Part shown: positions 4,307-44,758 of the stretch, piece by piece
Position numbering within the stretch: the stretch's first letter is position 1
How the letters are laid out: each line of letters opens with the position of its first letter
From: an uncultured delta proteobacterium
GTDB lineage: Bacteria; Myxococcota_A; Polyangia; Polyangiales; Polyangiaceae
Assembly: GCA_963782055.1 (NCBI GenBank)
Contig: CAWAIF010000003.1
Location: 4,416,001-4,480,000 of the forward strand
Direction: 5' to 3'
DNA length: 64,000 nt
Notes under the pieces: generated by a model
Seen by the model: the letters and a program-made list of their open reading frames with translations, nothing else
The model's database searches: none
What the model was told of the DNA's origin: nothing
Translations under genes and position numbers: made by a program

Positions 4307-4748
4307 ATGAACCCCACCGCAGCGCGCGCCCGCACGCTGGCGCACATGCGTCGTGTGCTCGCCGGCGCCACCGTCGCCGCGGCGGGCTGCTCGCACGAAA
4401 CGGCGCCGCCCACCACCGTGGTGCTGCCGGCGGCTCCGCCCGCGTCGGTCGCCGCGGCGAGCGCCGACGCGGGAGCACCCGCGCCCTCGGGAACAGCGGT
4501 GGCCGCTGCCTCGGCGTCGGCCCGGCGCGTGACGCCGAACCTCAACCCGCTCACGACGCACCCGATGATGGGGTCGGACCCTGTGCCCCCGCCCTCCTAT
4601 TGCCCGGGCGTGGGCAAGGCCTCGAAGGCGTCGGGACGGCTGTTGCACGACGCCGCCGGCACGCTCGTGGAGCTCACCGTCTCGCTCCCCGCCTCCGGCC
4701 CGAACGCCGCGACCTTCTCCGCCGCCGGGCAGCCGTCGGCCGCGCAAC
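4307..4748 (+). pseudogene. Lipoprotein truncated by 100-bp repeat
   Basis: Lipobox AAGC, Ala/Pro linker; frame runs into the repeat at 4749. Confidence 0.6.
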
Positions 4749-4848
4749 CACCCTGGTCCGTCCTTCCAGTGACACCGGACGGCCCCACTTCGCATAAGAT
4801 GGATTCCGTAAACTTTCGCGCCCGACCGCGCTAGGATTTCCTATGCGC
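4749..4848 (+). repeat. 100-bp dif-like unit, copy 1
   Basis: CACCCTGGTCCGTCC...ACTTCGCATAA GATGGA TTCCGTAAACT...TCCTATGCGC. Confidence 0.97.
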
Positions 4849-4850
4849 CC

Positions 4851-6770
4851 ATGACCGACCTCGACAGCCCCCTGTCGACGGTGCCTCACCCCAACGACAC
4901 CCAGGCCATGCGGGCCTACACGCAGACCTACGACTACGACGAGGTCGGCAACATCCTCGGGATGTTCCACACCGCCACCAGCGCCAACTGGAACCGCCAC
5001 TACACCTACGACTCCTCCAGCAACAAGCTCGCCACGACCGAGATGCCCGGCAATCCCTCCGGCGGCCCCTACTCCGGCACCTACTCCCACGACGAGCGCG
5101 GCAACATGACGGCCATGCCGCACCTGTCCACCATCGCGTGGGACTGGGCCGACCGCATGCAGAGTGCGGACCTCGGCGGAGGTGGTACGGTCTACTTCGT
5201 GTACGACTCCGCCGGCCAGCGCGTGCGCAAGGTCTGGGACAAGACGAGCGCCCTGCGCGACGAGCGCATCTACCTCGGCGGGTACGAGATCTGGCGGGAG
5301 TCGACCGTCTCCGGCGGGACTGCCACGGTGCAGGAGGAGCGACAGACCCTGCACGTCATGGACGACGTGCGGCGCATCGCGATGGTCGAGACCCTCACGG
5401 TGACGGGCGGGAGCACCGTGACCTCGCCGACGTCACGGCAGCGCTACCAGCTCGCCGATCAGCTCGAGTCCACGTGCGTCGAGGTCAAGGAGGACGGGAG
5501 CATCATCTCCTACGAGGAGTACTTCCCCTTCGGGGCAACGTCCTTCCGGTCGGAGACCGGGGAGGTCAGCAAGCGCAGGTACCGCTACAACGGCAAGGAG
5601 AGGGACGAGGAGACCGCGCTGCACTACTACGGGGCGCGGTACTACGCGGCGTGGCTTGGGAGATGGACACGACTAGACCCGGTCACCGTTGACGGGCCAA
5701 ACCGTTATGCCTATGTCCGTAACAACCCCGTTCGCATCCGAGATCCTCACGGTCTGGCGGGAGACCCAAGACTCACCAGCCTCGAAAATGCAGCACGGGG
5801 CGCGGTTGCCGTGGTAGCCGGGAGAGTCGGGATTGACCCCGCAGCAGCAGCAAGCGCAACCGCAGACCTAGAACAGCGCGCAAGGGACGCACTGTTCCGA
5901 CAGCAGCGGCAGCACGTGGGGCCGCGACACCTAACGAGCCTCCGACGCACAGACGAGCTAAACGTTCAGACCCCTACGGAGAAACTCCACCTTCCAAAAG
6001 TGCGCTCTGCCACTACACAGGCGTTGACTGCGGGCGGCGAGGGCGGCAACGGCAGCGTACGCATACGCACATACCCAACTGGTCGACCAATACACACTGT
6101 ACCGGATCCGGTGGGACAACCTGGCGCGATCGAGGGAATGATCCCGGTGTGGGGGGCAGGCCGGACTGCCATTGATGAACTCCAGCGCAACCACCCGGTG
6201 GCGGGGATCTTCTGGTCCGGCATGGCGATCAGCGACATCTTCTTCGTCAAAGGCGCAGTGGTCGGGGGCGCGCGTGCGCTTGGCCGTCTCGCGTTCCGGG
6301 AGCTTCTTGAACAGAGCGAGCGAAATAGCGCAGAAGGGTTAGCGCGAGCGGGAAGAACTCTTTATGAGGGAGAAGCTTCGCGCGGCCTGGAGAGCCTCAA
6401 ACAGGAGCAGGGTGCAGGACGAGCCGTGGCGACACAGGAAGAGAGGGCCCTTTTCGATGCAAGCAAGACTACCGACACACTTTACCAGGGAACCGCAACA
6501 ATAGACAACAACGGCGCGCGGTTCATAAAGGCCACGTCGATTTTGGCAAAGATGCAGCTTACCGCAGTCCAGAAGGCTCAAGTAGTTCAGGGCTTTGCAA
6601 CAAAGATTGGGTTCGGATTCGGAGCGGAAGGTCTCGTCAGCAAAGATGCGTATCTACTGCTCCGTTCAGAGGACCACAGATACGCCTTCCGCTTCCTTAG
6701 GGCGACCGGCGCCATTGAGTACGGAAAGTTCGATATGGCAACCATGAACTATGCGTGGAAGCAACTATGA
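4851..6770 (+). CDS. Rhs core fragment with C-terminal putative toxin domain (5'-truncated)
   Basis: YD repeats, RYRYNGKERDEET, YYGARYY, PNRYAYVRNNPVRIRDPHG, then lower-GC tail; starts mid-Rhs 2 bp after repeat. Confidence 0.9.
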   Translation: MTDLDSPLSTVPHPNDTQAMRAYTQTYDYDEVGNILGMFHTATSANWNRHYTYDSSSNKLATTEMPGNPSGGPYSGTYSHDERGNMTAMPHLSTIAWDWADRMQSADLGGGGTVYFVYDSAGQRVRKVWDKTSALRDERIYLGGYEIWRESTVSGGTATVQEERQTLHVMDDVRRIAMVETLTVTGGSTVTSPTSRQRYQLADQLESTCVEVKEDGSIISYEEYFPFGATSFRSETGEVSKRRYRYNGKERDEETALHYYGARYYAAWLGRWTRLDPVTVDGPNRYAYVRNNPVRIRDPHGLAGDPRLTSLENAARGAVAVVAGRVGIDPAAAASATADLEQRARDALFRQQRQHVGPRHLTSLRRTDELNVQTPTEKLHLPKVRSATTQALTAGGEGGNGSVRIRTYPTGRPIHTVPDPVGQPGAIEGMIPVWGAGRTAIDELQRNHPVAGIFWSGMAISDIFFVKGAVVGGARALGRLAFRELLEQSERNSAEGLARAGRTLYEGEASRGLESLKQEQGAGRAVATQEERALFDASKTTDTLYQGTATIDNNGARFIKATSILAKMQLTAVQKAQVVQGFATKIGFGFGAEGLVSKDAYLLLRSEDHRYAFRFLRATGAIEYGKFDMATMNYAWKQL

Positions 6771-9462: not shown

Positions 9463-10788
9463 CCTGGATTTCGCTCGCACCGGTCCTCGGAGCGGGCGCG
9501 GGCGTCGCACGGGTCGGCGCGTCCCGGATCGGTGCCCGGCACGGCTGCCGCGCACGATAAGCGCGTAGCGTGAGCACACGTCCCCCTTTCCCCCGCCTCG
9601 CAAACCAAGTTGTGTGCCGGTCAATTCAGCATCGGGCGAGGAGCGAGTCGCAGCTGCCAGCGACCCCCGACGCGCAGCAGGCGAGCGGGCACCAGGACGC
9701 AGGCGCGACGCATCCAGGTCGCGCGCCAGTGTGCCACGGCGGTCCCCGGGCACAGCGACAGCACCCAGCGACGCATCAGGTTGTAGGCCAGCAGCTTGAG
9801 CAGCAACGCGGCCTCGTTGGCGTCGAAGGTGTTCGTCGGGGCGTAGCCGATGCCGAAGGCGTTCTTGAGCTCGGCGAAGAGCGGCTCGATCCCCGCCCGG
9901 CCGTCGTAGAAGCGCGCCACGTCGTCGGCGTCGCGGTCGTGATCGTTGGTCAGGTAGACCTGCGCCGAGTAGTCGAGGTCCTCCCAGAGGTGGACCTGCT
10001 TGCCGGTGTCGCGCTCGCTGGTCCGCACCGCCACCACGCGCCAGCCGGGAGGCCAGTCGTCGCGGCGGAAGTCCACCACGGCGACCTGTCGCGTCGGCTC
10101 GCCGAAGGCATCGCGATCGGTCGTGCGCCAGCGCGTCGTGCGCGCGACGGCGCTCATCAGGTTGGCGGTCTGCCGCATCTTCGCCACGAAGTACGCCCCG
10201 CCGCGCTCGACCGCAGAAAGCAGCGCTGCAGACTCTCCGCCGGAGTCGATCCGCATCGTCACCACGGCTTTCGGCGCGGCGCGATGCAGCCGTCCGATCC
10301 ACTGCGCGATGTCCTCGACGTCGTCCTCGCCGATGCCCGTGTCGCCCGGCCGCAGCCGCGCTCCGAGCATCGTATCGGTCTCGGCGATGCGCGCCAGGAT
10401 CGGGTGATAGCTCACGCGGCCGTGGTAGCGCGGGTTGTAGCCGACGTGCGCTCCCTCTTGCTCGCCGAACAGCGGCGTCACCGTCGTGTCCACGTCGATG
10501 GTCAGCTCCTTGGCGCGGAGCTTGGTGAGCGGCTTGAGCCCCTGCTCGGCCATCAGCTCTTCCAGCCTCTCGAGCTCGCGGCCCCTGAAGCGCCGCAGAT
10601 CGTCGTAGAGCACGTCGATGCTCGGCACGATGCCGCCGGCGAGGTGCCGGAACACCGGGTCCGTCGCGAGCACCTCGAAGTCGAAGATGCGCCGCGCTCC
10701 CGCCACCGACGCGTCGAGCAGAAGCTGAATCTGCGCCGCCATCGGATAGACCACCTGCGCTCCGGTCTTGAGGTGCCCGAAGTCCCGC
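9463..10788 (-). mobile_element. Second IS1380 copy, 5'-truncated by the 100-bp repeat
   Basis: Near-identical to 7377-8702; stops at agtcccgc|caccctgg. Confidence 0.92.
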
Positions 10789-10888
10789 CACCCTGGTCCG
10801 TCCTTCCAGTGACACCGGACGGCCCCACTTCGCATAAGATGGATTCCGTAAACTTTCGCGCCCGACCGCGCTAGGATTTCCTATGCGC
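10789..10888 (+). repeat. 100-bp dif-like unit, copy 2
   Basis: Identical to copy 1. Confidence 0.97.
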
Positions 10889-11154
10889 TCGTCGTCCGCT
10901 TCGACGCGAAGACCCCATCCTCGCTGCCGAAGCTCCCTTCGTGGAGTGGGTCGTTTTTCTAAGACGGAGCGCGGTCGCCGAAGGCAGCTAGGTCCGGGAC
11001 TTCCAATCGGGCTCTTCTGGGTTTCGGGTGGCAGCCAACAGCGGACGGCGGTTCCCGCCGTCCCGTCGGTCCCGTCGCATGGTCGGGTGAGGCCGGCGCG
11101 TGGCGCATCAGGGCGCACGGGTTGGCGAGGCGGAGGTCCGAGGGTCTACGATGC

Positions 11155-11254
11155 CACCCTGGTCCGTCCTTCCAGTGACACCGGACGGCCCCACTTCGCA
11201 TAAGATGGATTTCGTAAACTTTCGCGCCCGACCGCGCTAGCATTTCCTATGCGC
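11155..11254 (+). repeat. 100-bp dif-like unit, copy 3
   Basis: 2 substitutions vs copy 1. Confidence 0.97.
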
Positions 11255-15655: not shown

Positions 15656-15863
15656 TGTACCGGCGTTGGATGCAAAGCCATTTTCTGCTTCTTCTTCGTT
15701 TTCCTGGTCTCGTTTGGTCGTGACGACGATTTGCTCGGCATGGAGGTGTCCCTTCGCCGCTGGTTGGCGGCGCGTGCAGCAGACTGGTCGCGCTCTGGTG
15801 ACGCGCAGCGTCGAGCTTCCCCTCGATTGACTCTTCGCGTTCATCGGACAGCGGGCTCGTCGC

Positions 15864-15963
15864 CACCCTGGTCCGTCCTTCCAGTGACACCGGACGGCCC
15901 CACTTCGCATAAGATGGATTTCGTAAACTTTCGCGCCCGACCGCGCTAGCATTTCCTATGCGC
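15864..15963 (+). repeat. 100-bp dif-like unit, copy 4
   Basis: Identical to copy 3. Confidence 0.97.
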
Positions 15964-17064: not shown

Positions 17065-17279
17065 GGTAGCGTCGCCGCGGGGCCGCGTAGCAAATGGGCG
17101 CGGGCTGCCATTTGGTTTGGGATCCCGCTAAGTGTAGTCGTGATGGTTGTCGCACGCTTGGTCCATAATCCGTATGGAGGGTTCCGGGTCGTCGCGACGA
17201 CCGACAGGCAAGCGGATGTCGCCTGTGTGAGGCGCGCGGTTGTGGCAACGGGCTGGTCGGAGTTGAAGACGGGGAAGGC

Positions 17280-17479
17280 CACCCTGGTCCGTCCTTCCAG
17301 TGACACCGGACGGCCCCACTTCGCATAAGAGGGATTTCGTAAACTTTCGTGCCCGACAGCGCTAGCATTTCCTATGCGCCACCCTGGTCCGTCCTTCCAG
17401 TGACACCGGACGGCCCCACTTCGCATAAGATGGATTTCGTAAACTTTCGCGCCCGACCGCGCTAGCATTTCTTATGCGC
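17280..17479 (+). repeat. Head-to-tail dimer of the 100-bp unit (copies 5 and 6)
   Basis: 17280-17379 and 17380-17479 with no intervening DNA: CCTATGCGC|CACCCTGG. Confidence 0.97.
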
Positions 17480-21438: not shown

Positions 21439-21618
21439 TCTGGCCCGGACAGGCCCGGGCGGCCACAGAAAAGCTGGGCCATCGTCACTGGCACAGCGAC
21501 GACACGGAGCCGAAGGAGACCGGGGCCGGGGTCACCGCCACGTCGTCGAATAGAGTGTAAGTGGCGTCCCCGGGCCAGCCGTCGTCGTGGCTGGTGAGCG
21601 TCAGGGTGTAGCTGTCGC

Positions 21619-21718
21619 CACCCTGGTCCGTCCTTCCAGTGACACCGGACGGCCCCACTTCGCATAAGATGGATTCCGTAAACTTTCGCGCCCGACCGCG
21701 CTAGGATTTCCTATGCGC
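21619..21718 (+). repeat. 100-bp dif-like unit, copy 7
   Basis: Identical to copy 1. Confidence 0.97.
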
Positions 21719-21784
21719 CCGGAGGCGTACCTCGATAGTGGCCTAGGAGCAAGCCTCCCCGGCGCCCGCTGGCGACTGCCTGTT

Positions 21785-21973
21785 CCCCGCGCCGAGGTCC
21801 GCCCCGTGCAGCACACCAGCCTCCCCGATGGCGCGCGCGAGCGCGACATCGAGGGGAGGGGCGCCACGCGCAGGGCTCGCGCGCAAGCCGTCGTGCGTGC
21901 CGTAGTCCGTGCTCATGCACCCACCGCCGGCACGCGCGACGGCGAGCACGAGCCCGAGCATGGCGCCCGGAGG
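21785..21973 (+). repeat. ~190-bp repeat B, copy 1
   Basis: Similar to ~46811-47002; both are followed by Rhs fragments. Confidence 0.8.
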
Positions 21974-23437
21974 GGGAATGTCCCCGGCGATGTTGAACTT
22001 CTGAAGTTGTAGCGGCGGCTCCTTGGCCGGCCTGAGAATCGGGTCGACCAAGAACCAACTGCCCGGGACGGGGCAAGGAGCCGCCATGAAGAAGAGAGCC
22101 GCAAAGAGGAACAGGAAGCAAGAGGCGTCGGCGGGGGCCGCGCTGCCGGAGGCGTTCCGGCAGATGGTCCTGCCGATGATCGCCGGCATCGAGGTCACTC
22201 GGAGCGGCTTGCTGGCGTTCGTCCACGCGATGGGTCGCGCCGCACTCGACGAGCTTCTTCGGGGCGAGGCCGAGCGCGTCGCTGGCCCGAAGGGCAAGCA
22301 CGTCGCTGGTCGTGCCGCGCACCACTGGGGTACGACCCACACGCCGCTGCCGTTCGGTGGGCGTGACATCGTCGTGCAGCGGCCGCGCGTCCGCAGCAAG
22401 GACGGGCGCGAGGTCGCCTTGCCGTTGGTGGAGGAGCTTCGTCGTCGCGACCCGCTGCCCGACCGGGTCGCCGAGCAGATCGTGCTCGGCGTCTCGACGC
22501 GCGGCTACGAGCGGAGCCTGGAGCCGGTCGCGGCCGGAACCAGGACGCGGCGCGCGAGCAAGAGTGCGGCGAGCCGGGCGCTCGTGGACAAGACCACGGA
22601 GAGGATGAGCGCGTTCCTCCGCCGCCGTCTTGACGCGCTCGACATCGTGGCGATGTTCGCCGACGGACTGGAGGTGGCGAGCCAGACAGTCATCGTGGCC
22701 CTCGGCGTCACGGCCGACGGGACGAAGGTGCCGCTGGGCCTCTGGCTCGGCTCGACGGAGAACGCGGCGGTCTGCACCTCGCTCGTGCAGAACCTGGTCG
22801 AGCGGGGGCTGAGGATCGACGGCAAGATCCTGTGCGTGATCGACGGCGGCAAGGGGCTGCGCAAGGCGCTCTGCGACGTGCTCGGGTCGAGCGCGGTGCT
22901 GCAGCGCTGCCAGGTCCACAAGACGCGCAACGTCCGCGACCATCTGCCCGACTCGCGCAGGGCGTACGTGAGCGGCCAGATGCGCGAGGCGTACCGGACG
23001 CGCAACGCGAAGGTCGCCAAGAAGCGCCTGCTTCAGCTCGCGTCGTGGCTCGACAAGAACGGCGAGGACGCGGCGGCCGGCAGCCTGCGCGAGGGTCTCG
23101 ACGAGACGCTCACCGTGCTCAAGCTCGGCCTCCATCCCACCCTCTGCCGCACCTTCGCGACGACCAACGCCATCGAGAACATGAACGGGACCATCCGCCG
23201 CATCACGCGCAACGTGAAGCGCTGGCGCGGCGGCCCGATGATCCGCCGCTGGGTCGCCCTCGCGGTGGTCGAAGCGCAGAAGAAGTTTCGGCGCGTGAAG
23301 GGTCACGCCCACATGTCCGCGCTCGTCCGCGCCCTGCGCCCCGAGCAGCTCCCCGTTGCCGACGAGGAGAAGGTCGCGTAGTCCATCAGACCGCCGCCGG
23401 TGCGACTGCCAAGTTCAACACGGCGTGGGACATCCCC
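21974..23437 (+). mobile_element. IS256-family element
   Basis: IRs GGGAATGTCC...TGTTGAACTT / AAGTTCAACA...GGACATCCCC; 8-bp TSD CCCGGAGG. Confidence 0.93.
22086..23381 (+). CDS. IS256-family transposase
   Basis: GVSTRGY, FADG, VIDGGKGL, QRCQVHK.RN, TTNAIE. Confidence 0.95.
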   Translation: MKKRAAKRNRKQEASAGAALPEAFRQMVLPMIAGIEVTRSGLLAFVHAMGRAALDELLRGEAERVAGPKGKHVAGRAAHHWGTTHTPLPFGGRDIVVQRPRVRSKDGREVALPLVEELRRRDPLPDRVAEQIVLGVSTRGYERSLEPVAAGTRTRRASKSAASRALVDKTTERMSAFLRRRLDALDIVAMFADGLEVASQTVIVALGVTADGTKVPLGLWLGSTENAAVCTSLVQNLVERGLRIDGKILCVIDGGKGLRKALCDVLGSSAVLQRCQVHKTRNVRDHLPDSRRAYVSGQMREAYRTRNAKVAKKRLLQLASWLDKNGEDAAAGSLREGLDETLTVLKLGLHPTLCRTFATTNAIENMNGTIRRITRNVKRWRGGPMIRRWVALAVVEAQKKFRRVKGHAHMSALVRALRPEQLPVADEEKVA

Positions 23438-23445
23438 CCCGGAGG

Positions 23446-23681
23446 GGCATCCCTCCTCCATGCGCTCGTACACCCAGACCTGCGACTACGACGAGGTCGG
23501 CAACATCCTCGGGATGTTCCACACCGCCACCAGCGCCAACTGGAACCGCCACTACACCTACGACTCCTCCTCCAACAAGCTCGCCACGACCGAGATGCCC
23601 GGCGATCCCTCCGGCGGCCCCTACTCCGGCACCTACTCCCACGACGAGCGCGGCAACATGACCGCCATGCCCCACCTGTCT
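23446..23681 (+). pseudogene. Rhs fragment, truncated by repeat
   Basis: Near-identical to 4908-5128. Confidence 0.9.
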
Positions 23682-23781
23682 CACCCTGGTCCGTCCTTCC
23701 AGTGACACCGGACGGCCCCACTTCGCATAAGATGGATTTCGTAAACTTTCGCGCCCGACCGCGCTAGCATTTCTTATGCGC
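23682..23781 (+). repeat. 100-bp dif-like unit, copy 8
   Basis: Ends TTCTTATGCGC. Confidence 0.97.
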
Positions 23782-24026: not shown

Positions 24027-24512
24027 ATGACGGTGTTGGGTCCTGATAGCTTTTGGACCACCGCGTCGATGGTCGCGAGGCGACCTGCATGGGTCCCGGT
24101 GCAAGCCGCCTATGAGCTGAAGCGCCCAGTGCTCGTGCTGGGAAGGCAGTGGACGCTTTGTTGCAAGCTGCACCTAATACCGGTCCTTCGCCGGCGCCGG
24201 CCTTTGGGCAGTGTGGCTATTCGTGCTAGTGTCACAATGTGGCCGCCACGATACGCAGCCAAGTACCGAGAACGGCTGAAGCAAGCTGGTTGGTACAAGG
24301 TGGTGGCCGCGGAACTGCGAGTGCTTGGGTACCACGGCACGTGGTGCGATTGGGAGAACGGGAAGATGGCTGATTTCTGGAAGGATATTGCCTCGGCTGA
24401 CGACGTTGGCCGCGAACTCGCACAACTGGAGCAGTTCGATCCCGCCACTCCGGAGCCGGCGGACGAGCGAAGCCGGTTGCCCAACCGCCGAACGTCCCGC
24501 GCACGGCCGGGC
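24027..24512 (+). CDS. Hypothetical protein running into repeat
   Basis: ORF with GAGG RBS; lower GC. Confidence 0.5.
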
Positions 24513-24612
24513 CACCCTGGTCCGTCCTTCCAGTGACACCGGACGGCCCCACTTCGCATAAGAGGGATTTCGTAAACTTTCGCGCCCGACCGCGCTAGGA
24601 TTTCATATGCGC
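24513..24612 (+). repeat. 100-bp dif-like unit, copy 9
   Basis: Spacer GAGGGA. Confidence 0.97.
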
Positions 24613-25346: not shown

Positions 25347-25376
25347 AGGCGAACGTCTGACTTTGGATGCCATGCT

Positions 25377-25425
25377 CACCCTGGTCCGTCCTTCCAGTGA
25401 CACCGGACGGCCCCACTTCGCATAA
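25377..25425 (+). repeat. Left half of 100-bp unit (copy 10), ends at the XerC-like arm
   Basis: ...ACTTCGCATAA then foreign sequence; right half at 31012. Confidence 0.95.
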
Positions 25426-26053
25426 GTAAGAGTCGATTGCGTGAGCGCGCCGGGTCGCGGCGGCGGTCGCGTGGCGCGGGTGCGCGGTCGCGAAATCGAC
25501 GGTTGGACGAAGCCGGTGCGCGGCAGCGGCGAGGCGGTGGCCTCGGAGCCCTATGGGGAAGTTGGCGGCGTGTGGGTCACGTGTGCGGGTGCGCGAGGTG
25601 CGGAGCGGGCGGCGGGACGGCGCTCGACGCGGGCGTCCCGGAGCGCGCAGCGGGCAGCCGTGCGTGCTCGGAGGCCGGGTTTTCGTGGCGTGGATGGACA
25701 GGGGCCTGGGCCGCACTCGTGGAGCGAGCGCAGTGGAGCACGACGCGGGGAGATCATGCGGCCCCCGGCGGGTCGCGAGCTCGGGGCTCCGGCAGCGCGG
25801 TACGCACGAGGGCAGGCGTGTGGCAAGCGGGGCAGCGGTGCAGGTCGATGCCCGCGATTCGCAGCAGCAGGTCGGCGGCGTCGACACGGCGCACCGGTCG
25901 CGCAGCGGGCGCCGCGTGCGGACCCAGTCTGCGGCGTGCGGTCTCGAGGCGCGTGGTGGCGTGGCTGGCGGAGTGCAGGGTAACCCATCGGTGATCTGAC
26001 GTACTCCCCGGCGGGACGGATCCCCGCTACGCGCATTGGCGGAGGTCAGCGCG

Positions 26054-26386
26054 ATGGGAAAGCGGGACGGTGCGCGGCAGTGGCGGCAGTGGACGGAGCA
26101 GCAGGCGCGGGCGGCCCTCGCGGAGCTCGCGGCGAGCGGTGAGAGCGCGGCGGGCTTCGCGCGGCGCAAGGGCGTGTCGTCGCAGCGGCTCGCGTACTGG
26201 AGGGGCCGCCTCGCGCGTCCGGCGAGCACGGAGTTCGTGGCCGTGGAGCTTGCGGGCGACAGCCTGGCGCGGTGGATGGAGATCGTCGTTGGGGGTGTGG
26301 TCGTTCGCGTGCGGGAGGAGCTGGACGCGGAGCGGGTGGCGCAGCTGGTGAGGGCGCTCGGGCGGCAGGTGGGCGGCGCGTGCTGA
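26054..26386 (+). CDS. IS66 accessory protein TnpA
   Basis: [24 protein letters not shown]. Confidence 0.85.
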
Positions 26387-26754
26387 CGCTGCCGCCCGGC
26401 GTGCGCGTGTTCGTCGCGACCGAGCGCGTCGACGGGCGCAAGGGGATCGACGGGCTCTCGGTGCTCGTGCGGTCACGGTTCGCCGAGGACCCGCTCTCGG
26501 GGACGATGTTCGTCTTCTTCTCGCGTCGCGCCGACCGCGTGCGAGTCCTGTACTGGGATCGCGACGGCTACGTGCTCATCACCAAGCGGCTGGAGAAGGG
26601 AAGCTACCGGTTGCCGTGGCCCGGCGAGGGAGGGCGCGCGGTCATCGAAGCGGCGGAGCTGCTCCTGGTGCTCGAGGGGATCGAGCTTCGCGGGGCCGGC
26701 CGGCGGATGCGCTGGTCGCCCTCCCCCCGTGTGCGACCGGCGCCCACTTTGTGA
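26380..26754 (+). CDS. IS66 accessory protein TnpB
   Basis: [30 protein letters not shown]. Confidence 0.92.
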
Positions 26755-26822
26755 GATCCATCTTCGTGGCTGCGATCGAATCGTCTTTCCATCGGGCGCG
26801 CCCTGCGGCAAAGAGGATCAGC

Positions 26823-28424
26823 GTGTCCGCGTCGAGCAACAAGCACCCGCCCATCACCAGCGCGATCGAGCCCGATCTCGGCGCGGTGAGGAAGTTCATC
26901 GCGGACATGATCGCCAGGGGCGCCGTCGCCGAGCTGATCGCTGCGGTCGTGGGGTTGCTCGTGCGCATGCGCGAGCTCAACACGGAGTTGATGCGCAGGG
27001 TCGCGAGCAAGTCGCGCAGGCGCCCGCCCAACGAGGCGATGCGGCGCCTGCAGATGGAGCTGCCGTTTCTGTGCGCGCCCGCCGCCAACGATGGCGCCAA
27101 ACCCGGCCTCCCCCGGGAGAAGAAGCCGAGGAAGCGCGGCGCCCACAAGCCCACGCCGCATGGCCGGCCCAAGCTGCCGGCGCACCTGCCGCGCGTCCCC
27201 AACGTGCTCCTGGTCCCCGCCGCCGATCGCGTGTGTCCGGACTGCGACGTCGCGCTCACGCGCGTCTGCCTCAAGACCACGGCGGAGAAGCTCGACGTCA
27301 GGCCGTCGGAGTACATCGTCGTGCAGACGCAGCTCGAGACGTGCTCCTGTCCCAAGTGTCGCCGCTACCTCGTGACCGCGCCCACCCCGGACGAGGTCGT
27401 GGATCGTGGGCTGCTCGGCGACGAGCTTCTCGTGCAGGCGCTGGTGGATCACTACCAGGACGCGGTGCCGTGGGAGCGGATGGAGCGCAACGCGCGACAA
27501 CAGGACGTGCCGCTCGCCGCCAACACGGTGGCGTCCTCCGTCGGGAAGGTGATCGACCTGTTCGACCCCGTCGTGCGCCACATCCGCGAGGCGTGCCTGT
27601 CGTCGAGCTTCACCGCGCTCGACGCGACGCGCATGCCCGTGCTCGACCCGACGCATCCGCTCGGCATCAAGAGCGGCGCGCTCTGGCTCATCGAGGGGGA
27701 TCATCGCCATGCGTGCTTCCTCTACGCGCCGAGCGGCCACGCCGAGCACCTGAAGAAGTTCTTCGAGGGCCGCACGCTCCGCAGCGTGATGTGCGATGGG
27801 TCGCCCACCAACAACTGCGTCGAGCACGCCGGCGGCCATCGTGGCGGCTGCAACGCCCATGGCCGGCGCGGCCTGGTCGAGGCGCTTCGTCGCGGCGACG
27901 CGCGCGCCGTGCCCGGGCTGGAGCTCTACGCCAAGATCTTCCACGTCGACGCCCAGTCCAGGCGCGCAGGCGAGAGCATCGACCGGCGCTTCGAGCGGCG
28001 CCTCGAGGACAGCGCGCCCATCGTGGCCGAGCTTCGCGCCTGGCTCTCCCTGCGCCTCGCCGACGTCGAGCCCAGGAGCGTGCTCGGCCAGGCGCTCCGC
28101 TACCTCGATCGCCAGTGGTCGCGCCTCACGGCCTTCCTTCGCGATCCGCGCATGGAGCTCACCAACAACGAGGTCGAGGCCGGACTTCGGACCTGGGTCC
28201 TCGATCGCAAGACGTGGCTCTTCGTCGGCCACGAGCAGAGCGCACGCCGCGCCGCCGACGCCCTCACCCTCCTCACCACGTGCAAGAAGATGGCGATCGA
28301 CCCGCGCGCCTACTTGCGCGACACCCTCGCGAGGATCCTCGCTGGTGAGAAGAGCCTGGCGGCGCTGCTGCCGGAGACCTACGCGGCCTCGCGCGCCGAG
28401 CGGGCGCCACCCCGCGCCGCGTAG
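26823..28424 (+). CDS. IS66 transposase TnpC
   Basis: LPAHLPR, CPDC, DAT, CNAHGRR, TNNEVE, RKTWLF. Confidence 0.93.
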   Translation: MSASSNKHPPITSAIEPDLGAVRKFIADMIARGAVAELIAAVVGLLVRMRELNTELMRRVASKSRRRPPNEAMRRLQMELPFLCAPAANDGAKPGLPREKKPRKRGAHKPTPHGRPKLPAHLPRVPNVLLVPAADRVCPDCDVALTRVCLKTTAEKLDVRPSEYIVVQTQLETCSCPKCRRYLVTAPTPDEVVDRGLLGDELLVQALVDHYQDAVPWERMERNARQQDVPLAANTVASSVGKVIDLFDPVVRHIREACLSSSFTALDATRMPVLDPTHPLGIKSGALWLIEGDHRHACFLYAPSGHAEHLKKFFEGRTLRSVMCDGSPTNNCVEHAGGHRGGCNAHGRRGLVEALRRGDARAVPGLELYAKIFHVDAQSRRAGESIDRRFERRLEDSAPIVAELRAWLSLRLADVEPRSVLGQALRYLDRQWSRLTAFLRDPRMELTNNEVEAGLRTWVLDRKTWLFVGHEQSARRAADALTLLTTCKKMAIDPRAYLRDTLARILAGEKSLAALLPETYAASRAERAPPRAA

Positions 28425-28486
28425 CCCTCACGGACATGCGCTCCGGGGGGCTGACGCGCCGCCGGGGCCGTGCTTTCGTGCACGTC

Positions 28487-28945
28487 ATGTTGCCGCTCGA
28501 AGGCTCGTTGCTGGAGAAGTTGCGCAAGATCGAGGCGCTCCACGCGGGCACGCGCGTGGATGGCGAGCGCGAGGCCGCGCGGCGCGCCGCCGAGCGCATT
28601 CGTGCCCGGCTCGCCGAGCTTCGCGGCCGCGAGCAGGACACCCTGCTCCACTACACCCTGCCCGATCCCTGGACACGCAGGCTCTTCGTCGCGCTGTGTC
28701 GCCGCTACGGTCTCGTCCCCTTTCGCGAGAGCGGCCGCCGGTACACCACCGTCCAGGTGCGCGCACCCAAGGCCTTCCACGACCACACGCTCTGGCCGCA
28801 GTTCCTCGCGCTCTCCGAGGAGCTCAACGCGCACCTCGACGAGCTCACCACCCGCGTCATCCGCGAGGCGATCAACGACGACGTGAGCGACCCGCAAGAC
28901 GGCGCTCCGCCCAAGGCGCTGCCCGAGCCGACTCGCGGCGCCTGA
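28487..28945 (+). CDS. IS66 passenger hypothetical protein
   Basis: LLEKLRKIEALHAG..GEREAA; inside the IS66 IRs. Confidence 0.7.
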   Translation: MLPLEGSLLEKLRKIEALHAGTRVDGEREAARRAAERIRARLAELRGREQDTLLHYTLPDPWTRRLFVALCRRYGLVPFRESGRRYTTVQVRAPKAFHDHTLWPQFLALSEELNAHLDELTTRVIREAINDDVSDPQDGAPPKALPEPTRGA

Positions 28946-29985
28946 CGCCGTCATGGCTCCAGCCGACGGCGGGCGGACAGCACGCGCCAGTCGCCGGATC
29001 AACAGGCCCCGTGGACGTCGATCACCGATGGGTTACGGTGCAGGCCGTAGTGGCGGATCTTGACGAAGCCGCGCGGCAGCACGTGCTGGACGAAGCGCGC
29101 GAGCAGCTCCTCGGCCGGGACGGTGACCGACTTGCCGTCTCTGGTGCGGAAGGTGACGCCGCGCTCGCCCATCGAGACGAAGCGGTGGTTGGAGATGCCG
29201 ACGCGGTGAGTGTAGCGACCGAGGTAGCGGATGACCTGAGCGGGGCCGCCGAAGGGTCGCTTGGCGTAGACGACCCAGGCCTTGCGTCGGAGCGCCAGCA
29301 GGTCGACGCCGCCCAGGTCGACGAGGCCGCGCGCGTGGGCGCGCTCGAGAGCGGCGAGCATCTTGCCGCGAAAGAGCGCGCCCATCACGCGCACGGGGAA
29401 GAGGAAGCGACGGCGCGCGCGCACCCAGCGCGCGGCGTGGCCGGTGAGTCCGCCGCCGGTGACGATGGCGTGCACGTGGGGGTGGAAGAGCAGCGCGCGC
29501 GTCCAGGTGTGCAGGACCATCGTGACGCCGAGCTCGGCGCCGAGCCACTTCGGATCCCGCGCGAGGGTGGCCAGCGTGTCGGCCGCGCTCGCGAAGAGCA
29601 TGTCGAAGACCCGCGCGCGCGAGCGCCGCGCGACGGCGCGCAGCTCGGCGGGGAGCGTGAAGACGACGTGGAAGTAGTGCACGGGCAGAATGCGCTCGAG
29701 CCGCGTGGCGACCCACCGCGCCTGCGCGAGCGACTGGCACTTGGGACAGTGCCGGTTGCGGCACGAGTTGTACGACGGTCGCTCGAGCCCGCACGCGGTG
29801 CACACGTCCAGATGTCCGCCCAGCGCGGCGGTCCGGCATCGCTCGATCGCCCGCAGCGCCGACCGCTCCTCGGGACGCAGCACGCGGCCGCCGGCGAAGG
29901 CCTCGCCGTGGGCGCGCACCACGTCCGCGAGCTCGATGGGCGCCGCGCGCGTGCGCGCGGGCGCACACGACGGGTGCATCGGGGC

Positions 29986-30831
29986 TCAGGGCAGCGCGTC
30001 GAGGGGGCTCTGAATCGACTGCACGCGGGCGGTGCTCACGTGCAGGTAGGCCATCGTGCTCCTGAGCGACGCGTGCCCGAGCAAGACCTGCAACGTGCGA
30101 AGGTCGGTCCCTGCGTCGAGCAGGTGCGTGGCGAAGCTGTGGCGCAGCGTGTGCGGCGACACGCGCCGGGTGATGCCCGCGCGCCGCGCCGCCTTGAGGA
30201 TCGCCCGGTGGACGGCCGCGCGCGTGAGGAGCGTCCCGGGCACGCGCCCCGGAAACAGTTGCGGTCCTGCGGGTCGTGACGCCTTCCAGTACGCGCGCAG
30301 CGTCGCCAGCAGCCTCGCGCTGAGCATCACGTAGCGCTCACGCCCGCGCTTGGTGTGCCGCACGTGCAGGAGCATCCGCTTCGGATCGATGTCGTCCACC
30401 CGGAGCTTGCACACCTCGCTCACGCGCAGCCCCGCCCCGTAGGCGAGCATCACCAGGGCCCGGTGCTTGTGGCTCGTGAGCGACGCGAGCAGCCGCGCCA
30501 CCTCCGCGCTCGTCAGCACCACCGGCACGTGCATCGGCACCCGCATGCGCGCCATCCCCAGCGTCGCCTCCGGCCGCTCCAGCGTCACCTCGTAGAGAAA
30601 CCTCAGCGCGGCCGCGTGCACGTTGACCGTCAGCGCCGCCAGCCTGCGCTCCGCCACCAGGTGCAAAAGGAACGTCCGGATCTCCGCCGCCCCCAGCGCG
30701 CACGGCGACCGCCCGTGGTACTGCGCGAACCGCCGCACGCACCCCACGTACGTGGCGATCGTGTTGGCGCTCATCCCTCGCAGCGCGAGGTCCTCGCTCA
30801 TCGTGTCCCGCAGTCTTCGCTTCGCACCCAT
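29986..30831 (-). CDS. Tyrosine recombinase (SAM-like N-terminus)
   Basis: GAGLRVSE, TKRGRER, HTLRHSFATH, LLGH, Y; full catalytic set. Confidence 0.95.
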   Translation of the reverse strand: MGAKRRLRDTMSEDLALRGMSANTIATYVGCVRRFAQYHGRSPCALGAAEIRTFLLHLVAERRLAALTVNVHAAALRFLYEVTLERPEATLGMARMRVPMHVPVVLTSAEVARLLASLTSHKHRALVMLAYGAGLRVSEVCKLRVDDIDPKRMLLHVRHTKRGRERYVMLSARLLATLRAYWKASRPAGPQLFPGRVPGTLLTRAAVHRAILKAARRAGITRRVSPHTLRHSFATHLLDAGTDLRTLQVLLGHASLRSTMAYLHVSTARVQSIQSPLDALP

Positions 30832-31011
30832 CGCGGCCTCCTTCGGCTCCGCGCGCGCCCACGAGCGGGCGGCGCGCGCCGCAGGATCGCCCGCATCACG
30901 GCACGCGAGGGCTACGAGGCGGGCTCGTCAGCGCGCACACGGCTCGCGGGGCTCCCGGGTCGCGAGCGAGCTTGATGCGGAGCCACGCTGCCGCGCAGCG
31001 GCTTCGTCCAA

Positions 31012-31062
31012 GATGGGTTTCGTAAACTTTCGCGCCCGACCGCGCTAGGATTTCCTATGCGC
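31012..31062 (+). repeat. Right half of 100-bp unit (copy 10)
   Basis: GATGGG TTTCGTAAACT...CCTATGCGC preceded by element arm GCTTCGTCCAA. Confidence 0.95.
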
Positions 31063-31118
31063 CGGCGGATGCGTTGCTGCGGGTGACCTCGACCTGCCGC
31101 ACCGGGCCGCCCTGGCGC

Positions 31119-34454: not shown

Positions 34455-34559
34455 CCCACGCGAGCCGTCTGGCGTGGCGCCCGGCACGCGAGCGCGGAGC
34501 GCTACTCTCCTGACACCCCTTATCCGGATCCCGGATGGGCCAGGCGAAGAGTGTAGTGC

Positions 34560-34608
34560 CACCCTGGTCCGTCCTTCCAGTGACACCGGACGGCCCCACT
34601 TCGCATAA
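34560..34608 (+). repeat. Left half of 100-bp unit (copy 11)
   Basis: Ends TCGCATAA (the IS66 TSD). Confidence 0.95.
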
Positions 34609-36124
34609 GTCTCTGCTTAGCGGCCGGAAGACGGCCCGCGGCCCGGGCGTGACGTCGACCGTCGGAGGACTCGCCGGCTAGTGGGCAAAGACAGACGGAG
34701 GCGGCTTGCCGTGGAGGTGACTTTCGTACAGCCCGATGACGAAGCCCCGAAGCGGGAGCTGGCACTTGCGCCGCGTCTGCGTGATGCTCATCCAGTGCGC
34801 CAGGGTGGCGCTGCCGGCGGCCGAGCGCGTTCCGCCGGTCATCGCGCGGTGCCGCCCGTGGGCGCGGATGTCGCGTTCGGTCGCGTTGTTCGTGGCCGGG
34901 ACGTCGGGGCGGTCGATGAAGAGCGTCACCCCCACCTTGTGCTCGTCGAGGCGCTCCTGCAGCCGGACGATGTCCGGGAACTCCACGAAGTTGGTGCTGC
35001 TGATGAGATGGCCGAGGCGGATGCGCGCGCCTCGGCGCTGCTCGGGATCGCCGCTCGCCGCGGCGTGCTTGCCCGCGACGTAGAAGCCGATGAGTCGGTC
35101 GCGGAACTCCTCGGTCGCGGCGCACGGGGTGAGCTCGGCGATCTTCTTGGCCTCGCGGATGGTGTGCGCACCGCAGTAGGCGTGGGTCCAGCCGTCGTGA
35201 CTCGTGTACACGCCGTAGAAGTCGGTGCACAGGACTCCTTTGAAGCTCGCGCCGAGCATCGACTCGGCGACCCACGCGCCGCGCGACAGCTCGGCGCGGA
35301 AGACCGAGACGCGGTCGGTGCGCATCAGCCACATCCAACCCGGCACGCCGTCCTGTCGATGGCCGCTCTCGTCGAGGCCCGCCACGGGCGATGCGCGCAC
35401 CGCGTCGACCAGCTCGTCGTAGCTCGGCGCCGAGCGGCGTCGCAATCGGTCGAACATCTGCGCCAGGCCGCCGGTCGTGATCGAGATGCCGAGCCACTGT
35501 CCGAGGAACGCACTGATCTTGCCCAGCGGCATGTCGCGCTCGAAGCGCAGGTCCAGCGCCATCGCCTGCACGTTGGGGCCGAACGACACCGCGGCGACGC
35601 TCTTGCCCGCCGCCGGCGCGCCCGGCAGCTTCGCGACCACGCGCTTGTGGCACACCTCGCAGCTGCCGACGTGCGCCACGTGATGCGTCTGCCGCGGCTG
35701 CACCACTGGGATGTCGGTGACGACTGTGCTGTCCGTCTCGCCCGTCGCCACGACTGCCCCGCCACAGCTGCACGTCGCCGGCATCTCGTGCACGACTTCG
35801 TCGTCGACGTGGGCCGGTGCGGCGGGCCGCGATCCGACATGGCCCACCTTGCGGCCGCGCGGCTTGCCCGAGGGCGCCCGCCGACCCTCGGAGCGCGACG
35901 TCCGCCGCTTCCCGCGCTCCCGGAACCCGCGCTTCCACTCCTCGATCTCCTTGCGCAGCTTCGCCAGCTCTTCGCGAAGCGCGGCGTTCTCCTGCTCCAG
36001 CTCCTGGATCCGCTGCTCGGGCGTCACGTGATCCGGGATGCTCCCGATCAGGTCCCATGGAAAGAACTTCTCGCATCAGGAACGAAGAATGGACCCACAG
36101 TGTGCGACACCGCTAAGCAGACAC
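34609..36124 (-). mobile_element. Single-ORF IS66-family element inserted in the dif-like site
   Basis: IR GT(C/G)TCTGCTTAGCGG; 8-bp TSD TCGCATAA at 34601-34608 and 36125-36132. Confidence 0.93.
34678..36027 (-). CDS. IS66-family transposase
   Basis: Coiled coil, GLDESG, CTDFYGVY, CGAHTIRE, TNNATERDIR. Confidence 0.93.
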   Translation of the reverse strand: MTPEQRIQELEQENAALREELAKLRKEIEEWKRGFRERGKRRTSRSEGRRAPSGKPRGRKVGHVGSRPAAPAHVDDEVVHEMPATCSCGGAVVATGETDSTVVTDIPVVQPRQTHHVAHVGSCEVCHKRVVAKLPGAPAAGKSVAAVSFGPNVQAMALDLRFERDMPLGKISAFLGQWLGISITTGGLAQMFDRLRRRSAPSYDELVDAVRASPVAGLDESGHRQDGVPGWMWLMRTDRVSVFRAELSRGAWVAESMLGASFKGVLCTDFYGVYTSHDGWTHAYCGAHTIREAKKIAELTPCAATEEFRDRLIGFYVAGKHAAASGDPEQRRGARIRLGHLISSTNFVEFPDIVRLQERLDEHKVGVTLFIDRPDVPATNNATERDIRAHGRHRAMTGGTRSAAGSATLAHWMSITQTRRKCQLPLRGFVIGLYESHLHGKPPPSVFAH

Positions 36125-36183
36125 TCGCATAAGATGGGTTTCGTAAACTTTCGCGCCCGACCGCGCTAGGATTTCCTATGCGC
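36125..36183 (+). repeat. Right half of 100-bp unit (copy 11)
   Basis: TCGCATAA GATGGG TTTCGTAAACT...CCTATGCGC. Confidence 0.95.
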
Positions 36184-41643: not shown

Positions 41644-42303
41644 CATGGGGCTACGTTACTCAACGTGCGTGGGAAAGCGCAATTCTCGACAGCTGCCCGT
41701 TCCACCCGGAGGGCGGTTGCGGCCTCGAGAAGCTCGGGAGCTACCCCCGCGTCGAGCCCGCAGGCGTGCGCGTCGCGCGCTGGTGGTGCCCCAGGCAGCG
41801 GGCGTCGATCAGCCTCTTGCCGTCGTTCCTCGCGGCGCGGCTCTCCGGCACGCTCGCCGCGGTCGAAGACGTCGTCACCGCGGTGGAGGCCGCCGGCGGT
41901 GTCGCGGCGGCGGTGGACGCGGTGCACCCGCCGGACGCCGACGACGCCGTCGGGCTCGTGTGCGCGCTGAGGTCGATCCGTCGGCGGGCATCGGCGGTGC
42001 GCGCCGCGCTGCTCGCGATCGCGACGCTGATGCCCGAGCGGTTCGCAGGCGTCAGGCCGACGCTCGCCGCCTTCCGCGAGGCGCTCGGGTGCCATCGCGT
42101 GCTCGTCGTGCTGCGCGAGCTCGGCGAGCGGCACCTCGGTGCGTTGCCCGTCCCTCTCGGATTGCGCACGCGGGCGACCGGGTGACCGGGGGTCGCCGCG
42201 GCCGGCCCACACGAAAGGGTGCCGGCTGCCGGCGGCGATCTCGCCGAGCTTGCCGGCACGCCGCTCGGAAAGGGTCCGGGCGAGCGCACCGAAGGCATCC
42301 GCC

Positions 42304-43821: not shown

Positions 43822-44362
43822 CTCACCAGTACGCGCGCAGCGCCTCGAGCAGTCGTGGGCTGAGCATCACGTAACGCTCGCGCCCGCGCTTGGTGTGGCG
43901 CACATGCAGCAGCATGCGCTTCGGATCGATGTCGTCGACGCGCAGCTTGCAGACCTCGCTGACGCGCAGACCGGCACCGTAGGCCAGCATCACGAGCACC
44001 CGGTGCTTGTCGGTCGCGAGCGCGCCGAGCAGCTTCTCCACCTCGACGTGCGTCAGCACCACCGGCACGTGCATCGGCACCCGCATGCGTGGCATCAGGG
44101 CGATCTCCTTGGGCCGCCCGAGCGTCACCGCGTACAGGAACTTCAGCGCCCCGGCGTAGACGTTGAACGTCGCGGCGGCCACCCGGCGCTCCTGCGCGAG
44201 GTGTAGCAGGAATGTGCGGATCTCGTCGGCGCCCATCGCGCACGGGGAGCGACGGAAGTGCTCGGCGAACTTCCGCGCGCACCGCACGTAGGCGTCGATC
44301 GTGTTGGCGCTCATGCCTCGCAGCGCCAGGTCCTCTCGCATCTTGTCGCGTAGTCTTCGCAT
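43822..44362 (-). pseudogene. Second tyrosine recombinase, 3'-truncated
   Basis: Close paralog of 29986-30831; stops after LRAYW, lacks HxxR/H/Y. Confidence 0.9.
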
Positions 44363-44533
44363 CGCGGCCTCCTTCGGCTCGCGCGCGCCCGAGAGCGGGC
44401 GGCGCGAAGACTCAGGATCGCAGGGGCGGGCAGGAGCTACGAGACGGACTCGCGCCGCCGCTGCGAGGGCGACCTGTCAAGCAGGCCACGGCGTCCATGC
44501 GAAGCGATGCTGCCGCGCAGTGGCTTCGTCCAA

Positions 44534-44585
44534 GATGGATTTCGTAAACTTTCGCGCCCGACCGCGCATAGGATTTCCTATGCGC
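44534..44585 (+). repeat. Right half of 100-bp unit (copy 12)
   Basis: Preceded by the same element arm GCTTCGTCCAA (44523-44533). Confidence 0.93.
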
Positions 44586-44758
44586 CCGGCGCCATCGTCG
44601 CCGCCTGACGCTCTGCCCCTCCTCACCCAGACCACCCGATCCACGCGTGCGGCCCGCGAGCGGGCCGTGGGGGCCCCCCCACCCATCCCCGTATGGGTCC
44701 GCAGACTGCGGGCAGCTGAGGGCTGACGTATCGATGCGGCTGTGCTAGCTCGGACCGC

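Follow-up and report, generated by a model that had tools for sequence, protein, structure and literature searches.

Why does a sequence resembling dif, the site of XerC/XerD recombination, recur in arrays far from the one position at which a chromosome carries its dif, and which enzyme, if any, acts on it? The question is raised by 28 bp at positions 4787–4814 (+ strand) of a 64,000-nt stretch of DNA, hereafter the window, on the 7.0-Mb contig (C3) of the 7.58-Mb assembly of an uncultured member of the Polyangiaceae (G000). These 28 bp are the core of a repeated 101-nt unit. Comparison within this genome and with its relatives showed the core to be a mimic of dif and not the dif itself, and showed a mobile element with an Xer-type recombinase joined to it at what corresponds to the cleavage position of the left arm.

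On re-reading, the window sequence at 4787–4814 was ACTTCGCATAAGATGGATTCCGTAAACT, in agreement with the original prediction, which had given it an 11-6-11 layout (ACTTCGCATAA-GATGGA-TTCCGTAAACT). The left, XerC-type arm lies at 4787–4797, the 6-bp spacer at 4798–4803 and the right arm, of degenerate XerD type, at 4804–4814 (all +). Around this core, unit 1 spans 4748–4848 (+) with sharp outer ends, (C/T)CACCCTGG and TATGCGC; its left accessory part (4748–4786) contains a 6–9-bp hairpin stem, and its right accessory part occupies 4815–4848. BLAST with the 101-nt unit located nine intact full-length copies in the window, all on the + strand, plus a set of half-units. Unit 1 is followed by unit 2 (10788–10888, core 10827–10854), unit 3 (11154–11254, core 11193–11220), unit 4 (15863–15963, core 15902–15929), units 5 and 6 (17279–17479, starting at 17279 and 17379, cores 17318–17345 and 17418–17445), unit 7 (21618–21718, core 21657–21684), unit 8 (23681–23781, core 23720–23747), whose left side adjoins a truncated Rhs fragment, and unit 9 (24512–24612, core 24551–24578). 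Units 5 and 6 form a head-to-tail tandem with an overlap of 1–2 nt, an 'empty cassette' of ~100 nt. A diverged full-length unit with 87% identity (core ACTTCGCACCA-GAGGGC-TTTCGTAGACC) lies at 52297–52397 (−). The variants described earlier proved real: the right arm alternates between TTC and TTT (10 versus 9 among 19 near-identical genomic copies), and besides GATGGA the spacer occurs as GAGGGA (units at 17279 and 24512) and as GATGGG (31010 and 36125). When the window was scanned with Rfam at gathering thresholds, the units matched nothing, and the only match was a group II intron (39641–41573, −).

The core had originally been compared with the dif sites of E. coli (left arm, 8/11) and B. 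subtilis (TTTC variant of the right arm, 9/11). Both scores are arithmetically right for the sequences quoted, and the E. coli sequence is the entry printed in the table of PMC2731167. We then scanned the whole genome with a family dif consensus, allowing up to five substitutions in 26 nt, and obtained 21 matches, with zero random matches. Twenty were unit cores, in arrays at 2.7, 4.4 and 5.2 Mb, and one was a unique site at C3 3,558,765 (−), AATTCGCATAA-GATACA-TTATGTAAACT. This site coincides with the cumulative GC-skew maximum of the 7.0-Mb contig (3.50–3.60 Mb) and is taken to be the chromosomal dif of G000. The unit core and this dif have 23 of 28 positions in common (10/11 in the left arm, 4/6 in the spacer and 9/11 in the right arm), and agreement with a relative's dif reaches 25 of 28; against relatives, the right arm scores 9/11 and the left arm 11/11, close relatives having ACTTCGCATAA itself as the XerC arm of their dif.

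When the unit was searched by BLAST in 80 other genomes of the family, eight of them each yielded a single short match, in every case confined to unit positions 38–73, that is, to the 28-bp core only. Seven of these eight matches read nnTTCGCATAA-N6-TTATGT(A/T)AACT and were single-copy and dif-type (for example, ACTTCGCATAA-GATGCA-TTATGTAAACT, the sequence of the dif of a same-genus genome). In 401 genomes of the order, a match was found in 51, mostly one per genome and with the arm TTATGTAAAC, and a reversed-pattern control gave no match in any genome. The right (D) arm of the M. xanthus dif, as tabulated in PMC2731167, is the same as that of the family dif. Judged by these scans the resemblance of the core to dif is far beyond chance, and the core is a close copy of the lineage's own dif, which supports the dif-like reading originally made. 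The host also encodes XerD, which exceeds its curated cut-off (343.5 bits), and a XerC-like protein that falls slightly short of its own (322 bits). That the unit is the real chromosomal dif is ruled out, as the units are multicopy and arrayed and the true dif is single, at 3,558,765 on the GC-skew maximum. The window lies ~0.86 Mb away from this dif, which holds no insertion; the element insertions lie in units away from it.

It had also been claimed that the left arm is invariant while the spacer varies. Within G000 this observation carries no information, because identity among the copies is ≥95% along all 101 nt; in a diverged unit type and in other genomes the claim held. The V-type unit of G000, intact at C3 4,412,528, reads TTTTCGTATGA-CGTGTG-TTTCGTAAACT. 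In a same-genus genome (entries G001 and G407, apparently one assembly, as contig numbers and coordinates are identical) the unit reads ACTTCGCATAA-CGGGCG-TTCCGTAAACT: both arms match G000 at 11/11 positions around an unrelated spacer, and the accessory flanks are barely recognisable as related. Arm-versus-spacer conservation was thus found in homologous units, both same-genus and V-type, the reverse of the outcome that the original prediction had named as refuting. A third genome, G024, has three copies of its own ~110-nt unit with its own flanks (TGCGCATAA-CGCGGC-TTCCGTAAAC). The original caveat that the right arm departs from the usual D arm was borne out, since the change from TTATG to TTCCG/TTTCG is kept across genomes; TTCCG is identical in the units of G000, the same-genus genome and G024, whose spacers are wholly different. 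Arms that are constrained around a spacer that is not constitute the pattern expected for protein-binding arms flanking a crossover region. A pattern scan for intact units in three metagenome-assembled genomes (MAGs) returned only chance-looking matches, and the flank of unit 1 in same-genus genomes, at ~66% identity, was too diverged for an empty-site comparison by synteny.

The half-units revealed where the core is interrupted. The left half of an occupied unit, ending ...CGCATAA, lies at 25376–25425 (+, the attL side); it is followed by an IS91-family element of ISAzo26 type (25426–31011, −; GTAAGAGTCG...GGCTTCGTCCAA) and then by the right half (31012–31063, +, the attR side), which consists of the spacer GATGGG, the right arm TTTCGTAAACT and the right accessory part. 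A truncated copy of a second element lineage (43823–44587, −; ~77% nucleotide identity) meets a unit right half at the same point, GTCCAA/GATGGA (~44532; a slash marks a joint). All 13 ori-end junctions come after ...ATAA(G), 12 of them in recognisable unit left halves (one of V-type); the remaining one is in non-unit DNA, yet that DNA ends CCATAAG. The ter end leads into an ordinary right half at 10 of 14 junctions and into a V-type right half at one; at the other three it meets a group II intron, at the intron's 5' end. By their junctions, these half-units are the two sides of insertions and not products of odd recombination.

The V-type unit was found both empty (...TATGA-CGTGTG...) and occupied (...TATAA/GTAAGAG......GTCCAA/CGTGTG...). 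From this pair the crossover is seen to lie 5' of the first base of the spacer, which delimits the element as GTAAGAGTCG...GGCTTCGTCCAA. The insertion point, CATAA^G, is the boundary of left arm and spacer in the 11-6-11 frame, i.e. the XerC cleavage position; as described in PMC5357621, the half-sites of dif and their 6-bp central region set the cleavage positions, and the recombinase on the left half-site cuts the top strand. In unit 1 the crossover would accordingly fall between 4797 and 4798. That the sole crossover readable from junctions is at the boundary of C arm and spacer fits the earlier suggestion of XerC-driven exchange or of a different recombinase.

Several other insertions and breaks touch the units. 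The unit at 34559–36183 (+) is split in its core by an IS66-family element (34610–36124; transposase 34678–36027, −; terminal repeats GT(C/G)TCTGCTTAGCGG) that lies within the left arm and is flanked by a 9-bp target duplication, TCGCATAAG. A group II intron (5' end GTGCGCCCAGCATGG) occupies the junction of element ter and unit, at GTCCA/A, in 3 of 14 copies (C3 2,272,360, +; 5,216,048, −; 6,186,554, +). On the Paraburkholderia plasmid L049 an intron likewise adjoins the ter hairpin of an ISAzo26-type element, and at plasmid locus L101 an ltrA gene lies upstream of one. These positions suggest that group II introns home to the ter/unit junction; class C introns home to attC. A unit left half at 62547–62599 (−), ending ...CGCATAAG, continues into unrelated sequence (AGTTCCGTGCC...) that is neither the IS91 element nor a unit right half. 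One further unit (C3 5,199,284–5,199,375, −) lacks exactly 12 nt, ACTTCGCATAAG, comprising the left arm up to the crossover region, so that its hairpin is directly joined to ATGGATTTCG.

Intact copies of the inserted element are 2,517 bp long; the copy in the window additionally holds a nested IS66-family element (~25980–29037). Its Y2 (HUH) transposase gene (28999–29979, −; Pfam Y2_Tnp and Zn_Tnp_IS91) matches NCBIfam NF033538 with 371 bits against a cut-off of 125 and has lost its 3' end to the IS66 insertion, intact copies elsewhere encoding ~385 aa. Directly upstream, with a 6-nt gap, is the gene for a 281-aa tyrosine recombinase, Int (29986–30831, −), of the Xer/integron-like group. This gene, named in the original prediction as a recombinase to be assayed, does not stand free but belongs to the IS91-family element that occupies a unit. 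Int has RHRY-type motifs (R..HxxR..H..Y) and is intact in nine copies in G000. The NCBIfam models that it matches best, none of them above cut-off, are those for integron integrase, XerA and XerD; against the integron integrase model TIGR02249 it scores 198.9 bits (cut-off 265) in two stretches, the best of which covers Int residues 9–183 and profile positions 4–179 of 315, the N-terminal part only. Tyrosine recombinases borne by IS91 elements are classed in bioRxiv 10.1101/542381 as an 'Integron-like' subgroup that does not have the IntI-specific insertion.

In its anatomy the element follows IS91: there is no target duplication, a small subterminal palindrome lies at ter, and oriIS adjoins a conserved target tetranucleotide. 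Under the IS91 rule given in PMC13181058, oriIS lies beside a tetranucleotide whose second base is T, and terIS has a subterminal palindrome; T stands at position 2 of the target and ter tetranucleotides of IS91, IS801 and IS1294 described there; the tetranucleotides here are TTAT/TTGG, as against GTTC/CTTG. The same source documents IS91 circles with an ori-ter junction. At the ori end of the G000 element, a 77-nt palindrome is followed by an inverted copy of the ter arm, so the single-stranded circle junction is predicted to fold into one long hairpin (−74.3 kcal/mol over 170 nt).

The pairing of recombinase and transposase is not peculiar to this genome. In the annotated ISAzo26 (plasmid 2 of Aromatoleum aromaticum EbN1), a tyrosine recombinase gene lies directly upstream of the transposase gene, and the same layout was found at five further plasmid loci in Paraburkholderia, Caballeronia and Acidiphilium. 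Homologues of the recombinase were detected in 623 plasmid records (tblastn, E ≤ 1e-20), all with <60% identity, and the pair is kept from Alpha- and Betaproteobacteria to Myxococcales MAGs. A Cloacimonadota contig carries a 38%-identical Int homologue, next to a transposase recognised by nucleotide similarity only. A Bradyrhizobium match (H8) was left out of the comparison, as its recombinase has no paired IS91. ISAzo26 has the same end architecture as the G000 element, with unrelated sequence.

Five MAG loci (L001–L005, ~77% nucleotide identity) have the ter end GT(C/T)CAA, and in four of the five it is followed, after a 6-nt spacer, by TTCCGTAAACT, TTACGTCAC..., TTACGTGGA... or TTACGTCTT...; the exception, L002, continues with GTAACGGCG.... 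In the same-genus genome the ori side of the element reads ACTTCGCATGA/CGGGCG..., so the circle junction contains the same spacer, CGGGCG, as that genome's units, which is what a tyrosine recombinase would require; only two ori ends of this element are available, one of them at a contig end. The ori terminus of five betaproteobacterial copies, (T/A/G)GCAGAG..., abuts GCATAA, GGATAA, CGATAA, ACATAG and GCATAA, so that 5/5 abut (C/G)ATAA or CATAG; the ter flank is readable in four copies, and YTATSG (TTATGG, CTATGG or TTATCG) lies 6 nt beyond the ter end in three. The boundaries of these betaproteobacterial elements were set by analogy and not from empty sites. ISAzo26 itself (L048) is flanked by ...ACTTTGCATAA/ and /CGACCC-TTATGGAAAGC, the latter followed by a perfect 32-nt palindrome. 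Flanks were also read for the Cloacimonadota (L007) and Acidiphilium (L105) elements, whose boundaries could not be fixed. At L048, L101 and L103 (also at L049 and L102) a second, separate tyrosine recombinase gene lies 150–500 nt from the ISAzo26-type element, and the target of the betaproteobacterial element may be that neighbouring recombinase's own site.

Across the whole assembly the unit gave 63 matches (BLAST, E ≤ 0.01), clustered on C3 at 2.72–2.74, 4.41–4.49, 5.18–5.27, 5.98, 6.17–6.20 and 6.33 Mb. Orientation is shared within arrays (16/16 at 5.18–5.27 Mb; 17/18 at 4.411–4.452 Mb). The 24 segments between units measure 0.26–11.9 kb, including one interval of near-zero length (the tandem units), and hold genes on either strand as well as gene fragments, among them pieces of Rhs (YD-repeat) genes at 4851–6770 and 23400–23680 of the window. 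The 11.9-kb segment (C3 5,244,669–5,256,605) contains three repeats of one Rhs region, and the segment at 21721–23680 of the window is a 487-nt piece of this locus with an IS256-family insertion. Three arrays share a ~4-kb cargo, 99.9–100% identical and with different neighbours (C3 5,223,819–5,227,859; 2,731,520–2,738,675; 5,256,708–5,263,902); one of its boundaries with the unit varies by 150 nt and another by 22 nt, one side is unit-free, and two of its junctions come after TCGAG. Four further units lie directly upstream of the window (C3 4,411,489–4,412,989; one inverted, one of V-type), so the kdpA and porin genes at the start of the window lie in a 7.8-kb inter-unit interval.

Taken together, these findings lead us to think it probable, with some reservation, that the core is a dif/Xer-type site copied from the organism's own dif and used by an Xer-family recombinase through one-strand exchange. 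The 28 bp would be a working recombination core embedded in a mobile 101-nt unit. A tyrosine recombinase of the Xer family, bound to the left arm ACTTCGCATAA, would cut and exchange the top strand at CATAA^GATGGA. Because the right arm is off-consensus and the spacers in G000 are non-homologous, the exchange would involve one strand and would probably be completed by replication, in the manner of CTX/VGJ-type integration, cer or the insertion of integron cassettes. The enzyme would most likely be the element's own 281-aa integron-like recombinase, possibly aided or replaced by host XerC/XerD. The HUH transposase would probably make a circular copy, which the tyrosine recombinase would paste into a unit, and recombination from unit to unit may build and reshuffle the co-oriented arrays. 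In this scheme the choice of enzyme, the exchange of one strand only, the sharing of the work between transposase and recombinase and the movement of cassettes are inferred.

A number of observations weigh against this reading. The circle junction of the G000 element, GTCCAA-GTAAGA-GTCGATTGCGT, agrees with the unit at only 3/6 spacer bases and lacks a recognisable right arm, and the mutual dyad symmetry of the unit arms is just 6/11. Folds of the unit and of its halves, on both strands, were no better than those of shuffled sequences (z −0.3 to −1.6), which also led us to reject the unit as an attC site of the integron type that folds as single-stranded DNA; pairing of its ends (CGCATA/TATGCG) shows wobble-type and not compensatory changes in the V-type unit. 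G024 and a further genome, G280, have multi-copy dif-like units, and no Int homologue was found in either genome at E ≤ 1e-30, but this is weak evidence because their assemblies are fragmented. The variable boundaries of the ~4-kb cargo are unexplained, as clean excision and integration at the core does not predict them. The remaining counterpoints, the complete IS91 ori and ter anatomy with its junction hairpin and the fit of the junctions to the T-at-position-2 rule, belong to the best of the alternatives.

This alternative, which we hold to be unlikely yet the most serious competitor, is that the IS91 Y2 (HUH) transposase acts alone by rolling circle and that Int has another job, such as resolving tandem copies. 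The transposase would nick 3' of ...ATAA (TTAT in its own orientation) in single-stranded DNA, join oriIS there and stop at its own ...CCAA; the unit would be a landing pad whose left half imitates terIS with a hairpin and a cleavage motif. An IS91 enzyme preferring TTAT would cut at Xer positions because dif arms contain TTATG/CATAA. Canonical anatomy, a Y2 domain above the family cut-off, absence of target duplication and palindromes at ori and ter are all as this scheme expects, and the junctions fit the rule of PMC13181058 equally well. The ter end of the element (hairpin and CTTCGTCCAA) resembles the left half of the unit (hairpin and CTTCGCATAA), no spacer homology is needed, as in G000, and the varying boundaries of cargo and unit recall one-ended transposition. 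However, a target of 4–5 nt cannot account for the presence of 12 of 13 insertions in a single family of 101-nt units, and the right arm, kept at a fixed distance of 6 nt and at 11/11 across genomes despite the change of spacer, is left unexplained. The ter-like structure, moreover, seems not to be conserved, because the same-genus units lack the hairpin-forming left-half sequence of G000 (judged by sequence, not by fold). It is also this very subgroup of IS91 that carries an Xer-like recombinase.

Less probable still is a pure host-Xer system like that of Xer-exploiting mobile elements or pdif modules, in which XerC/XerD would recombine the units, cassettes and the IS91 element would exploit them, and Int would be idle at the core. 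It draws on the identity of the left arm with the XerC arm of relatives, the 9/11 XerD-arm bases kept by the right arm, the presence of host XerD and a XerC-like gene, and the occurrence of units in genomes where Int was not found; sites used by known elements of this kind, as covered in PMC5357621, also keep the XerC side and diverge on the XerD side. The change of TTATG to TTCCG, identical in three genomes, suggests instead selection for something besides XerD, and a chromosome with some 20 identical direct sites distant from its terminus would be open to deletion by Xer. The site-targeting element, furthermore, brings its own Xer-like enzyme, in a widely conserved pair. EbN1 is reported in PMC2731167 as having no dif/Xer system, yet ISAzo26 is flanked alike there (one locus, boundaries set by analogy). 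We therefore favour the element's own recombinase over the host enzymes, because the Int-carrying subgroup of IS91 is the one found at such sites, because the TTCCG arm has been kept in spite of a different host consensus and because free action of host Xer on so many identical direct sites would be dangerous.

Contigs of one public soil run, in which 0.18 of the sampled words were present as short contigs with patchy cover, contained one joint inside an IS and none at units. That the unit is an inert dispersed repeat like the repetitive extragenic palindromes (REP) or miniature inverted-repeat transposable elements (MITE), dif-like by descent or chance and acted on by no recombinase now, is very improbable: the non-significant folds are as it predicts and the patchy contigs, in which no excision joint was seen, are uninformative, but the core holds two diverged element lineages, several copies 99–100% identical, a group II intron and an IS66 element, the arms were kept across genomes while all else changed, and co-oriented arrays (16/16 and 17/18) are not expected of a passive repeat.

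Two features of the window lie outside the units. A group II intron with a reverse transcriptase/maturase gene (39641–41646, −; Rfam D1–D4 and domain V–VI) is not inserted in a unit, and five tandem repeats of ~200 nt (58893–60101; 65–72% identity) lie inside a gene for an FG-GAP/cadherin-like protein (58218–60251).

Known cases of Xer/dif hijacking are a few phages and islands integrated at the terminus, together with the pdif modules of plasmids. Here, a dif core appears to have been copied into a mobile unit and spread in arrays over the chromosome, and it serves as the precise landing point of a widespread, functionally unexplained IS91 subgroup with an integron-type recombinase. A full-text literature search found neither a dif-like target nor a role of the recombinase described for the ISAzo26 subgroup. 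We know of no target given for it in ISfinder or TnPedia. The findings make testable the function of the ISAzo26-type recombinase, the split of copy-out and paste-in between HUH transposase and tyrosine recombinase, and the origin of cassette arrays outside integrons from a housekeeping recombination site; the conserved change from TTATG to TTCCG offers a handle on how such sites avoid or redirect host XerD.

With the chromosomal dif, the unit core shares the 11-6-11 layout and lineage-type XerC/XerD arms, and it differs in being multicopy and arrayed and not single at the terminus. The integrative mobile elements exploiting Xer (IMEX), such as CTXphi, VGJphi, TLCphi and the gonococcal genetic island with its difGGI, use sites that share with the unit the 11-6-11 core, a conserved XerC side and a divergent XerD side or spacer. 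According to PMC5357621, they integrate at the Xer cleavage position, XerC-type one-strand exchange can proceed without spacer homology, and tandem arrays arise by serial integration. IMEX differ in integrating at the host dif, whereas the units here stand in several arrays ~0.8–2.8 Mb from dif and the target is itself a mobile 101-nt unit in ~20 copies. They also rely on host XerC/D, in contrast to the element here, which encodes an intact tyrosine recombinase and a HUH transposase; in the plain cassettes no recombinase was recognised. No phage genes were noted. In its working the core would be like the attachment sites of IMEX or the Xer sites of plasmids.

The pdif modules of Acinetobacter are bounded by XerC/XerD-type sites and are thought, as stated in PMC9771954, to be shuffled site-specifically, and the segments here are bounded likewise. 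Sites of pdif modules are plasmid-borne and alternate in inverse orientation, whereas the units are direct repeats on a 7.0-Mb contig, carry ~40 nt of conserved accessory sequence on each side and come with a dedicated recombinase-bearing element. An Xer core with flanking accessory sequence is also the build of the plasmid multimer-resolution sites cer and psi, where, as described in PMC5357621, exchange by XerC only leaves a Holliday junction for other processes to resolve; their accessory sequence is ~180 bp as against ~40 nt, and the units differ in being chromosomal, multicopy and used as insertion points. By its gene pair and its IS91-type ends, the inserted element belongs to the ISAzo26 subgroup of the IS91 family; classical members use a tetranucleotide target only, and the dif-like target sets this one apart.

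Integrons, too, share features with this system. They have co-oriented arrays with repeats of ~100 nt, one per cassette, and a single fixed crossover by ...AA^(G/C), and in the same-genus element GTCCAAC conforms to RYYYAAC; the repeat is a homing site for group II introns and IS elements in both, and Int falls in the subgroup that contains IntI (bioRxiv 10.1101/542381). The differences are that Int is without the IntI-specific insertion and fails to reach the cut-off for integron integrases, that the crossover of attC is at the 3' end and that of the unit at position 50 of 101 with no significant hairpin, that the segments here (0.26–12 kb) often hold several genes or fragments and have no fixed boundaries, and that the recombinase is in a multicopy IS and not beside a single attI. 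We put forward, as a tentative and rather doubtful extension, an integron-like gene-shuffling platform of independent build, in which a recombinase from the sister group of the integron integrases rides on an IS91 rolling-circle element. The 101-nt dif-mimic unit would be a universal attachment site, HUH would copy out circles and Int would paste them into any unit, so that arrays of arbitrary chromosomal segments, including fragments of Rhs toxins, would be built and reshuffled. If true, this would give the recombinase of the ISAzo26 group a function, and the system would represent a living intermediate between Xer/dif, IMEX and integrons.

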